Below the pieces are notes generated by a model. The model worked only from the letters and a program-made list of their open reading frames with translations. It did not search any database and was not told the DNA's origin. From a virus (taxonomy: Duplodnaviria; Heunggongvirae; Uroviricota; Caudoviricetes), in IMG/VR virus record IMGVR_UViG_2693429700_000006: a DNA stretch of 11,769 nucleotides. One strand, written 5' to 3'. Positions 5,769 through 7,688 of this stretch are shown here, one piece after another (the stretch's first letter is position 1; each line of letters opens with the position of its first letter). Both the position numbers and the translations under genes were made by a program.

Positions 5769-5948
5769 TTGCGACAAGTTAACCGCTGGTTCAAAGATCA
5801 CTACGGAGTGCCCGTCAGAGTCATTCGTTGGGAGCCGGAAACACAACGGGTTATCTACCTCCGCGAAGGCTATGAGCATGAGTGCTTCAGCCCGCTCGAA
5901 CAGTTTCGTCGTAAATTCAGGGAAGTAGAGGTCGGTCATGAGCACTAA
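5769..5948 (+). CDS. Small ORF (59 aa, TTG start) hidden below the 60-aa ORF-track cutoff; alternatively the C-terminal half of a frameshifted gene starting at 5590
   Basis: AGGAG at 5755..5759 lies 9 nt before the TTG. The translation looks protein-like ([59 protein letters not shown]). Its stop overlaps the start of the next gene as ATGAGCACTAA. Confidence 0.35.
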
Positions 5949-6276
5949 ATTAACCGGCTATGTATGGGATGGTTGCGCTGCATCAGGCATGAAATTATCC
6001 AGCGTGGCAATTATGGCCCGCCTGGCTGATTTCAGTAATGACGAAGGTGTGTGCTGGCCATCAATTGAAACCATTGCCCGTCAGATTGGCGCGGGGATGA
6101 GTACCGTCAGAACGGCTATCGCACGGCTGGAAGCAGAAGGCTGGTTAACGCGTAAGGCGCGTCGCCAGGGTAACCGCAATGCGTCGAATGTTTATCAGCT
6201 TAACGTTGCGAAGCTTCAGGCAGCGGCATTTTTTCAACTGTCAGATTCTGACCCGTCAAAATTTCTTACCTGCTGA
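5938..6276 (+). CDS. Winged-helix (HTH_36-type) DNA-binding protein resembling the N-terminal domain of phage replication initiators, 112 aa; probably truncated
   Basis: Signature ...WPSIETIARQIGAGMSTVRTAIARLEAEGWL... is typical of the HTH_36 family. Only 112 aa, followed by a 290 bp region with no intact ORF. Confidence 0.6.
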   Translation: MSTKLTGYVWDGCAASGMKLSSVAIMARLADFSNDEGVCWPSIETIARQIGAGMSTVRTAIARLEAEGWLTRKARRQGNRNASNVYQLNVAKLQAAAFFQLSDSDPSKFLTC

Positions 6277-6568
6277 CAAGTGGGTAACGCCACGCATGAT
6301 GACGAGAACTACCGGAGTAAGCGAAGCCAGGTGCCAGTTAATACTGACTCAGTTAGTTCTGGCGGGTCTGGCGAAGGATAACGGCGGGTACGGGAATAAA
6401 TTCAGACGCTGCCAGTAATGGCGGTTTCCTGCTGTGAAAATGGGCGGCTGGTGGGTGTTGGTAGCACCTGCCAGCCATTCGCTCATGCTTACTGGTCACA
6501 AGCGAACCACGGCCCACTGCTTTAGCGCAAAAGCAGAGTGAGCCTACCAGAGTTACGCTTACTGATCC

Positions 6569-7621
6569 ATGAAAAATACTGTAAAAATAAACAGTATTGA
6601 TTTAATCAACGCTGATTGCCTGCATTTTATTCAGTCCCTGCCTGATGATTCCATTGACCTGATTGTTACCGATCCGCCTTACTTCAAGGTGAAACCTAAC
6701 GGTTGGGACAATCAGTGGAAAGGGGACGAAGATTACCTTAAGTGGCTGGACCACTGTCTGGCCCAGTTCTGGCGGGTGTTAAAACCTGCCGGAAGCCTTT
6801 ACCTGTTCTGTGGGCATCGCCTGGCATCTGATATTGAGATCATGATGCGTGAACGTTTCAACGTGCTTAACCATATCATCTGGGCGAAGCCGTCCGGACG
6901 TTGGAATGGGTGTAATAAAGAAAGTCTGCGCGCATATTTTCCTGCCACAGAGCGCGTTCTGTTTGCTGAACATTACCAGGGGCCATATCGCGGCAAAAGT
7001 GACGGCTATGCAGCAAAAGAAAGGGAACTCAAACAGCACATAATGGCACCGCTGATATCGTATTTCAGGGATGCTCGTGCCGAACTGGGTATAACGGCAA
7101 AACAAATTGCCGAAGCCACAGGTAAGAAAAATATGGTTTCCCACTGGTTTGGTGCCAGTCAGTGGCAGTTGCCGAATGAGGCTGACTATCGGAAGTTACA
7201 GGCACTGTTTTCCCGTATAGCGGCAGAGAAGTTTCAGGAACAACAACTGGAACAACCACACCACCAGCTGGTGGCATCTTATGATTCACTGAATCGCAAA
7301 TATTCTGAATTGCTGGATGAGTTTAAATCTCTCCGGCGCTATTTCTCCGTATCAGTCTCCGTGCCTTATACCGATGTCTGGATGCATAAACCCGTTCAGT
7401 TCTACCCGGGTAAACATCCGTGTGAGAAACCGGCGGATATGCTCAGGCAAATAATCAATGCCAGTAGTCGACCTGGTGATCTGGTTGCTGATTTTTTTAT
7501 GGGATCCGGTTCCACAATAAAAGCAGCAATGGCGCTGGGGCGTCGGGCCTTAGGTGTTGAGCTTGAGTCAGAGCGGTTTAACCAGACAGTGAAAGAGATA
7601 AACGAGCTGGTGGGGAAATAA
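6569..7621 (+). CDS. Orphan DNA N6-adenine (or N4-cytosine) methyltransferase, beta class, 350 aa
   Basis: Motif IV DPPY at residues 35..38 (IVTDPPYF) and motif I FxGxG near the C-terminus (DFFMGSGST). This IV-then-I order defines the beta class. No restriction endonuclease gene is adjacent. Confidence 0.85.
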
Positions 7622-7627
7622 TCTGGT

Positions 7628-7653
7628 GGCCACGTCAAGTGGCCTTTTTATTT
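7628..7653 (+). terminator. Rho-independent terminator 7 nt after the methyltransferase stop
   Basis: GGCCAC-gtcaa-GTGGCC stem followed by TTTTTATTT. Confidence 0.6.
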
Positions 7654-7688
7654 CCATTACACAGCACCCGCATCTGCGAGGTGGGGTT

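Follow-up and report, generated by a model that had tools for sequence, protein, structure and literature searches.

The window considered here, the whole 11,769-nt stretch of viral DNA that was analysed, carries a replication-type gene and a lysis cassette, and the functions that usually lie between them in lambdoid phages seem to be missing. An earlier note on this DNA listed a helicase loader, the nin region and the Q antiterminator as absent, and suggested a domesticated cryptic prophage whose lysis genes may be silent. The question is therefore whether this locus represents the natural arrangement of a viable phage, a module maintained by the host, or a product of decay.

Judged by its sequence, the window is a remnant of an E. 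coli lambdoid prophage of the SfV/SfIV/mEp460 (KplE1/CPS-53-like) type. This assignment is backed by Pfam and PHROG matches together with nucleotide collinearity, since every base from 125 to 8248 is collinear with annotated phages, one junction excepted. The early-left block (xis and homologs of yfdT, yfdS, yfdR, yfdQ and yfdP) is collinear with SfIV and with the prophage of EC25 at 96–99.8% nucleotide identity, and the immunity region (LexA-type cI, cro and a CII-like ymfL) has the same order as in these two, with identity in the same range. The cI-type repressor of the LexA family (4033–4707, minus strand) is full length at 224 aa and collinear with gp37 of SfIV and with ymfK, a PGAP “LexA family protein”. 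It is followed by the CII-like regulator YmfL (5030–5593, plus strand; PF06892, E 5.5e-14; phrog_101) and by a small DUF4222 protein (5769–5948, plus strand; PF13973, E 5e-19), which is also annotated by PGAP.

Both ends of the window are formed by IS elements. Positions 1–124 are the right end of an IS629/IS1203 element (IS3 family), which cuts the integrase gene; window 1–129 is 99% identical to L003 within the IS1203 region of the latter, and native homology to the EC25 prophage (L413) begins at 125. The remaining N-terminal integrase fragment (85–543, minus strand) has approximately 139 native codons, running from 543 down to 125 and then into the IS, and a full-length integrase is found at the collinear place in SfIV and EC25. 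At the other end, the left end of IS629/IS1203 (TGAACCGCCCCGG...) occupies 11637–11769, with an IS1203 transposase annotated at the collinear place. It cuts the gene for the large terminase subunit (11047–11636, plus strand), of which only an N-terminal fragment is left and nothing past the first 590 nt; EC25 homology stops at 11636, and the fragment is a PGAP pseudogene in the genome CP148401. As the integrase breaks off at 125 and the large terminase stops at 11636, the window lacks a complete integrase and a complete set of virion genes, and the view of a cryptic prophage truncated by IS elements at both ends is borne out.

The 112-aa ORF at 5938–6276 (plus strand), which had been described as an HTH_36 protein, is present as reported (PF13730, E 7e-12). 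It consists of 108 native codons, encoding a winged-helix origin-binding domain, followed by four foreign codons (FLTC) and a stop. Its match to phrog_391 extends over positions 1–103 of 298 (E 5e-43), whereas the 313-aa protein of SfIV covers 1–298. The EC25 prophage likewise encodes a 313-aa protein at this place, and the left-flank DNA is 99.8% identical through the junction. Thus, the N-terminal domain of an O-like replication initiator is present (PF13730, phrog_391) and the C-terminal domain is absent; in SfIV, residues 172–304 match phrog_2357, phrog_2514 and phrog_4880, and by these matches the lost part resembles replisome organizers or DnaD-like loaders. The partial coverage of phrog_391 and the identity of the left flank to EC25 rule out a complete small regulator. 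The earlier note had left room for homologs in which the 112-aa protein would be a complete initiator; the homologs found here show a truncation, and in CP148401 PGAP calls the same ORF a pseudogene without C-terminus. The annotation “HTH protein” should accordingly read truncated O-family initiator. Iterons, which in intact relatives lie in tandem inside the O gene, were counted by regular expression: four were found in SfIV, four in PhiR29_1 and one in the window (TCTGACCCGTCAAAA, 6247–6261, plus strand).

The native part of the O gene ends at a deletion junction with a 2-bp AT microhomology at 6261–6262, where homology from the left runs up to 6262 and that on the right starts from 6261. 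The same endpoints are obtained against SfIV/mEp460 and against the single intact prophage of EC25. In the latter, window 125–6262 corresponds to L413 1501–7638 (99.77%) and window 6261–8248 to L413 13417–15404 (97.2%), while L413 7639–13416, or 5,778 bp, is unmatched in the window. Alignment to intact prophages, as had been proposed, thus maps the deletion, but the suitable references are SfV, SfIV, mEp460 and KplE1-type phages and not phage 21 or CP-933. The right flank is less similar to EC25 than the left (97.2% against 99.8%), and none of the sequenced phages matches the two flanks perfectly. The prophage that suffered the deletion was thus a mosaic differing slightly from them, and the length lost can be given only approximately. 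By this mapping, one illegitimate-recombination event removed about 5.8 kb and fused O at codon 108 with a 67-aa gene at its codon 16; on the left, the break falls just past the first of the four ori iterons.

Could such a joint be natural? Lambdoid genomes are mosaic, some phages have no Q-type control, and the early genes and the lysis genes of the window are each intact, all of which could fit a compact but viable phage that lyses without Q and has suffered no deletion. We regard this as highly improbable, because the joint cuts short the genes on either side of it (205 codons are gone from O, and the start from the small gene), three of the four iterons are missing, and the left and right matches all stop at the same position. 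Moreover, no record in the phage collection covers at least 80% of window 4000–9700, and neither the terminase nor the integrase is whole. We consider it equally improbable that the joint arose as an assembly or chimera artefact or was made by the flanking IS elements. Copies of IS629/IS1203 do bracket the window, and such copies often cause misassemblies and adjacent deletions. Against this, the identical joint occurs in the independently sequenced complete chromosome CP148401 (99.7% identical), both flanks continue base-for-base into phage sequence, and an IS-mediated joint is ruled out by the lack of IS sequence at or near 6261/6262. The exact 37-mer across the junction had no match in a set of one genome per species, a result of no weight, as E. 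coli is represented there by one genome; the junction was found in 1 of 5,426 complete E. coli genomes.

The gene content of the lost interval was taken from the PGAP annotation of the EC25 prophage. It comprises the last 205 codons of the gene for the O-like initiator with three of the four iterons, PerC/YfdN, a LexA-like gene, RusA, KilA-N, DUF968, Q with the pR'/tR' interval (pR', qut and tR' being placed, putatively, after Q), two moron genes, and codons 1–15 of the 67-aa gene. A nin-like block followed by Q is found in mEp460, SfIV, PhiR40_1, PhiR29_1 and EC25. Both are missing from the window, where homology jumps from L413 7638 to 13417, and to this extent the proposed loss of core functions is correct. 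It does not hold for the helicase loader: intact SfV, SfIV, mEp460 and EC25-type phages have no separate loader gene, and in mEp460, SfIV, PhiR40_1, PhiR29_1 and EC25 the initiator is directly followed by PerC/YfdN with no loader gene between. Absence of a loader in the window is thus a family trait rather than evidence of decay, and should be annotated as normal for SfV/SfIV/mEp460-type phages.

Late control has been removed as a unit. No Q homolog is found between cI and the lysis genes of the window, whereas every intact relative has Q, as either PF03589 or PF06530. In intact relatives a hairpin with a U7 tract lies directly 3' of Q, where SfV has an annotated terminator, and the interval from Q to tR' (L004 9978–10860 in mEp460) falls inside the deleted segment; the claim that neither a Q gene nor a late promoter region is left is therefore upheld. 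A simple sigma-70 scan of mEp460 did not identify pR', and its position in SfV/SfIV/mEp460-type phages is inferred by analogy with the Q/pR'/tR' logic described for Stx phages (PMC7547250); the replication module and Q of SfIV have also been described (PMC3851460). The intact relatives resemble Stx- and lambda-type control in having Q, a short interval, a strong terminator, the late genes, and further terminators before lysis. The window differs in that the whole control unit is deleted, leaving only a downstream terminator and late genes.

To the right of the junction, positions 6262–6418 (plus strand) are the 3' remnant, codons 16–67, of the 67-aa gene, which precedes the late-operon methylase and corresponds to gp52 of mEp460 and orf47 of SfV (phrog_331, E 4.6e-26). 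The 67-aa protein was read by translating mEp460 (L004) 11660–11863; tblastn covers residues 16–67 at 98%, and the remnant has no start codon. The 41-aa peptide at 6296–6418, suspected to be left over from a deleted gene, is the C-terminus of this protein. A predicted hairpin at 6408–6427 (plus strand; -11.7 kcal/mol, z -2.4), with the stop codon of the 67-aa gene in its loop and followed by UUUCC, may be a weak terminator-like element; homologous positions in other phages have a clearer hairpin and T-run. The stretch 6277–6568 is ORF-poor, as had been noted, in that no ORF survives comparison with relatives. Part of it is gene remnant, but half is a conserved RNA leader and not a scar. A late promoter or antiterminator within 6277–6568 was also considered. 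The sequence scan gave a single sigma-70-like match (6273–6300, 9/12), which lies within the coding sequence of the small gene and is equally present in intact mEp460 (L004 11718–11745). It was thus not created by the deletion. ARAGORN detected no tRNA or tmRNA.

The leader itself, at 6429–6568 (plus strand), is a conserved structured RNA by comparative sequence evidence, and apparently an undescribed one. It has three hairpins, H1 (6446–6476), H2 (6478–6506) and H3 (6510–6545). A covariance model of the leader gives 158.8 bits as its sole match in the window. In the covariance-model alignment, both partners have changed in 27 of 33 pairs and none of 500 shuffles reaches the observed values; an alignment by MAFFT only has 7 covarying pairs, again with 0/500 shuffles. 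When 40 diverse leaders were aligned with MAFFT and folded with RNAalifold, only 4 pairs were left, because the hairpins had been misaligned, and the alignment made with the covariance model was used in its place. Folding z-scores are -3.2 on the plus strand and -1.2 on the minus strand. In all 204 assessable loci the leader lies upstream of the methylase, always approximately 125 nt upstream of this gene family. An invariant AUGGGC at 6440–6445 can pair with 6481–6486, giving the GCYCRU strand two possible partners, the 5' AUGGGC or a segment inside hairpin 2. The invariant AUG was also considered as the start of a small ORF, but this was rejected, as the ORF length varies from 4 to 46 aa, the frames differ, and the AUG is missing in 6 of 46 sequences. 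The leader thus has the general features of a structured cis-acting RNA, namely covarying helices, strand-specific G-U pairs, a fixed position, and no conserved ORF.

A known RNA in 6277–6568 was sought by scanning the window and a 191-nt slice against Rfam by E-value, with no credible match. With Rfam 15, the whole-window scan returned nothing at E ≤1 within 6429–6568, and the best scores for the slice were 12–13 bits, compared with gathering scores of 44–90, and on the wrong strand. A full-text literature search for strings of the leader sequence found no paper, and the StxS paper makes no mention of a methylase leader. A loose RNA pattern run over genome contigs mostly matched GC-rich genomes by chance, and only about six enterobacterial loci were useful. 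Carriers of the methylase family by DNA similarity include Stx2-converting phages, which may have the leader as well. Like riboswitch or attenuator-type leaders, the RNA is the 5' leader of one gene family, with several covarying helices and a strand that has alternative partners. Unlike them, 6429–6568 has no Rfam 15 match, and its 3' end shows neither a terminator nor an obvious helix that would sequester the SD. Tentatively, and with more doubt than confidence, it might be an undescribed but widespread cis-regulatory RNA of lambdoid late operons, a pseudoknot or two-state switch controlling translation or stability of the SAM-dependent DNA methylase, and perhaps responsive to a ligand or to the neighbouring winged-helix-like protein of 67 aa. 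If so, the leader in this remnant would be intact, but would have lost both its partner gene and its transcription under Q.

The gene behind the leader encodes a full-length N6/N4 DNA methyltransferase of 350 aa (6569–7621, plus strand; PF01555, E 2e-42), as reported earlier, which is 99–100% identical to proteins on many IMG/VR contigs. The interval between methylase and holin contains a predicted intrinsic terminator (7628–7653, plus strand), composed of a 6-bp hairpin at 7628–7644 with five G-C pairs (-12.1 kcal/mol, z -3.1) and then TTTTTATTT. It ends 36 nt before the holin ATG at 7689, in agreement with the earlier description. This terminator had been taken as a sign of silencing, but it is conserved in viable phages: mEp460 and PhiR40_1 keep it with one loop substitution, and a terminator is annotated at the corresponding position of SfV. 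A further terminator ahead of the lysis genes is what a Q-type late unit would contain, and should be annotated as normal late-operon architecture.

By its sequence features, the lysis cassette is of the phage 21 type, with pinholin, SAR-endolysin and spanin. The EssD-like holin of 71 aa (7689–7904, plus strand) has an MKSM dual-start motif, matches phage 21 holin S (PF04971, E 8e-34) and is essD in the PGAP annotation. It is followed by a YdfR/DUF1327 protein (7909–8253, plus strand; PF07041, E 3e-40) and by a SAR-type endolysin (8597–9130, plus strand; PF00959, E 3e-24), a lysozyme whose Gly/Ala-rich N-terminal hydrophobic segment and E35-D44-T50 spacing were read from the translation. An Rz-like spanin (9127–9594, plus strand) corresponds to a PGAP “lysis protein” at the collinear place, and a nested Rz1 lipoprotein with the motif LIMVVGC is found in the +1 frame at approximately 9347–9553. 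All ORFs from methylase to Rz are full length.

What would remain of expression can be predicted from this arrangement. The remnant should be unable to replicate from its own origin and would have no Q-modified late transcription. The early rightward promoter, which is under repressor control, would now be only about 1.6–2.9 kb upstream of the methylase and lysis genes, and early rightward transcripts could reach the methylase via the conserved structured leader. These transcripts should mostly stop at 7628–7653, which in intact phages would be passed only by Q-modified polymerase. Without Q, this stop implies that the holin/endolysin/spanin cassette, although intact, is probably poorly expressed.

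A selected module would have the host keep the methylase, the lysis cassette and the N-terminal DNA-binding fragment of O because they are useful. Conceivable uses of such a module are epigenetic protection, controlled autolysis, and interference with replication of incoming phages that share the iterons. The full-length ORFs from methylase to Rz, the intact repressor, and a second strain with the same architecture would all be consistent with domestication. However, the junction is rare among complete E. coli genomes (the single occurrence given above), the flanks are 97–99.8% identical to live phages, and the O fragment lies inside a repressed early operon with one iteron left to act on. Rarity and flank identity fit recent decay, and a recent deletion explains the intact ORFs without selection. 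We therefore consider domestication improbable, and the earlier use of the term is not supported. A single deletion of about 5.8 kb, with the expression consequences outlined above, is ordinary prophage decay, to which we assign a probability of roughly 93%.

Compared with intact SfV/SfII/SfIV/mEp460-type phages and the EC25 thrW prophage, the window has the same gene order at 96–99.8% nucleotide identity. The shared genes are, on the left, xis, yfdT/S/R/Q/P, cI, cro, ymfL, DUF4222 and the 5' part of O, and on the right, the small gene, leader, methylase, terminator, S, ydfR, R and Rz. Missing from the window, in contrast to these relatives, are the 5.8-kb segment from O codon 108 to the small gene, the greater part of the integrase, and everything past the first 590 nt of the large terminase. 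CPS-53 (KplE1) of E. coli K-12 belongs to the same phage family, with yfdP/Q/R/S/T homologs in collinear regions, and also carries a truncated O-family replication gene. More generally, CPS-53, DLP12, Qin and Rac are lambdoid prophages broken by deletions and IS elements in which some genes stay intact, but their deletion endpoints differ from those of the window. In DLP12 and Qin, unlike in the window remnant, the lysis genes are still preceded by a Q homolog.

In a near-identical genome the key ORF has already been marked as a pseudogene by PGAP, and the deletion itself is of little importance. It does provide a base-resolved example of how a lambdoid prophage can lose its origin, recombination genes and late control in one step, with methylase and lysis cassette left intact. 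The leader, as a candidate new regulatory RNA located before a methylase family that is common in enterobacterial phages, could outweigh the finding of the deletion.

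The segment 5938-7688, which the earlier note had singled out for its missing lambdoid functions, is an ordinary deletion scar in a decaying prophage of the SfV/mEp460 type. The features listed in that note (a 112-aa HTH_36 ORF, a methylase, a terminator, the holin spacing and the IS ends) are all present, as seen from Pfam matches, the hairpin and the located IS termini. In a search of a phage collection, all sequence up to 6262 (from cI to the replication gene) finds its matches in SfIV-type phages, and all sequence beyond 6261 (from the methylase to Rz) in mEp460, PhiR40_1, cdtI and Ayreon-type phages. 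No record in the collection covers at least 80% of 4000-9700, and the left-side and right-side matches end at one common position. A whole-window search located both flanks in an intact prophage of E. coli EC25 at thrW/proA: 125-6262 corresponds to 1501-7638 of that prophage sequence (99.77% identity) and 6261-8248 to 13417-15404 (97.2% identity), leaving 5,778 bp of EC25 unmatched. The deletion proposed in the earlier note is thus confirmed, and its junction mapped. The unmatched segment holds the last 205 codons of a 313-aa O-like initiator, followed by yfdN/PerC, a LexA-like gene, RusA, KilA-N and DUF968, a 113-aa Q-family antiterminator, a pair of moron genes on the reverse strand and codons 1-15 of a 67-aa gene. 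Microhomology at the joint is 2 bp (AT), and the junction alignments show no IS sequence there. Among 5,426 complete E. coli genomes the joint was found in one, CP148401, a Korean chicken isolate (99.7% identity).

Nothing in the EC25 prophage corresponds to window segments 8249-8540 and 9379-10164; near the equivalent places it has iss/bor, on the reverse strand. Mosaic replacement around the lysis cassette explains both differences. A 90-aa reverse-strand ORF (8219-8491) is annotated in CP148401 as hypothetical. Between yfdR and yfdQ (1921-2100, minus strand) there is a weak, sub-threshold Rfam match to the sRNA STnc100, which scores 21 bits where the gathering threshold is 47 (E 0.45) and is probably due to chance.

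The ORF at 5938-6276 (112 aa; PF13730, E 7e-12) consists of 108 native codons followed by FLTC and a stop. Of the 298 positions of phrog_391 ("replication initiation O-like"), this ORF covers 1-103 and its SfIV homolog all; PGAP calls the ORF in CP148401 an incomplete helix-turn-helix pseudogene without its C-terminus. Intact SfIV and PhiR29_1 have four tandem iterons (TCTGACCCGTCAAAA and variants) within the initiator gene; the left deletion endpoint falls directly after the first of the four, and the window retains one. The replication module of SfIV comprises orf41-45, and its Q is orf46 (PMC3851460). A helicase loader had been counted among the lost functions, a view that does not hold, since PerC/YfdN directly follows the initiator gene in all five intact relatives (mEp460, SfIV, PhiR40_1, PhiR29_1 and EC25). 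No P-, DnaC- or DnaB-type gene was found in these relatives. The C-terminal half of the initiator, which is gone from the window, resembles replisome-organizer and DnaD-like loader families.

To the right of the joint, 6262-6418 corresponds to codons 16-67 of mEp460 gp52 (MLKQQDMTETAAAVLHFLPADKWVTPRMMTRTTGVSEARCQLILTQLVLAGLAKDNGGYGNKFRRCQ), a member of phrog_331. The 41-aa peptide (6296-6418) that had been suspected to be a gene remnant is therefore just that, the C-terminus of a partly deleted gene. Small genes of phrog_331 (65-67 aa), labelled TrmB-like or MotA-like in some phage records, lie upstream of a structured leader RNA (6429-6568 in the window) in 185 of 198 loci. The small-gene stop codon sits in a hairpin loop with a T-run after it (window 6262-6427, mEp460 locus 11660-11880 and other upstream regions). 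In phages that lack the small gene, a strong terminator, probably tR', directly adjoins the leader. Together, the small gene, the leader and the methylase appear to form a single conserved module that opens the late operon.

Downstream of Q in mEp460 is an interval closed by a strong hairpin and U7 terminator (-14.1 kcal/mol); an annotated terminator occupies the equivalent place in SfV. On the model of lambda and Stx phages (PMC7547250), this interval would represent pR'-qut-tR'; a simple promoter scan of mEp460 failed to single out pR', whose exact position is assigned by the same analogy. The equivalent of this interval lies wholly within the deleted segment. The terminator before the holin (7628-7653; GGCCAC-GTCAA-GTGGCC followed by TTTTTATTT; -12.1 kcal/mol, z -3.1) had been pointed out in the earlier note. 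It is a normal component of the late operon: mEp460 and PhiR40_1, both viable, have it with one loop base changed, and in SfV, too, a terminator is annotated there. Position 7689, 36 nt past the T-tract, is the start of a phage 21-type holin (PF04971, E 8e-34); holin, SAR-type lysozyme and Rz/Rz1 are all intact. Some phage records, such as mEp460, start the holin at an upstream GTG (7626-7904, 92 aa), and this ORF would cross the terminator hairpin; the start that gives the 71-aa MKSM form, chosen by PGAP, is the plausible one.

The remnant would be expected neither to initiate replication nor to produce Q-modified late transcripts, and the deletion has brought the methylase and lysis genes in behind the early rightward operon that cI controls. 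From the cro region to 7628, the only terminator-like sites on the plus strand are a weak match within the cro-like gene (4868-4885) and the weak hairpin at the small-gene stop, so induced early transcripts could reach the methylase; lacking an antiterminator, they should mostly end at 7628-7653. The earlier note had suggested a domesticated cryptic prophage. Recent decay is the simpler reading, because the flanks share 97-99.8% identity with live phages and only one in 5,426 E. coli genomes has the junction. Two IS629/IS1203 copies in the same orientation flank the 11.5-kb remnant, resembling a composite element: a right end (1-124) cuts the integrase gene and a left end (11637-11769) the large terminase gene. 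The right-hand insertion is common to CP148401 and the window, and the left-hand one is not found in CP148401. If the two copies recombined, the entire remnant could be deleted or moved.

Segment 6429-6568, part of what had been called an ORF-poor stretch, is not scar. The leader has three hairpins and lies directly upstream of the phage methylase (6569-7621; PF01555, E 2e-42). Across 20 representatives it keeps about 80% nucleotide identity; at the same loci, identity is 40-57% for the small protein and 56-83% for the methylase. The leader is conserved together with the methylase even at loci where the DNA of the small gene before it gives a poor match. Of 208 loci located by a pattern search, 204 could be assessed, and in every one of them the leader precedes the methylase by about 125 nt. 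Another set of loci, collected by way of the methylase protein and hence free of bias towards the RNA, has a recognisable leader in most upstream regions, with different helix sequences; L371, L385 and the divergent L407 were exceptions. The leader was seen at L007 (2590-2730), L008, L009, L010, L011, L012 and the 46 loci of its alignment. In one IMG/VR contig (L222, about 2148-2290) the leader runs straight into the C-terminal part of the methylase, the product of a separate internal deletion within the leader-methylase module. E. coli-type sequences have a nearly invariant GATC before the methylase ATG, and no obvious Shine-Dalgarno sequence.

A covariance model built from 20 sequences finds one match per locus in 46 of 49 loci and one in the window (158.8 bits). 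In an alignment fitted to this model, 27 of 33 pairs are changed on both sides (161 cells); in an independent MAFFT alignment of 20 sequences there are 7 such pairs, a number reached by none of 500 shuffles. On the model-fitted alignment the covariation score is 0.32; shuffles give 0.12 (none of 500 as high as 0.32), and slid partners at most 0.10. Frequent G-U pairs and the fold scores (z -3.2 on the plus strand, -1.2 on the minus strand) point to an RNA on the methylase strand. An invariant AUGGGC (6440-6445) can pair with GCYCRU (6481-6486), with 93.8% of cells paired and one compensatory A-U, in L375; this pairing competes with the upper half of hairpin 2, so the RNA may form a pseudoknot or act as a switch. 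A reading frame that opens at the conserved leader AUG was rejected, as it is not maintained across loci. Rfam 15 has no family matching the leader, and a full-text search of one literature collection found no printed occurrence of its sequence. The methylase leader RNA, a candidate cis-regulatory element, is the only potentially new item in this region.
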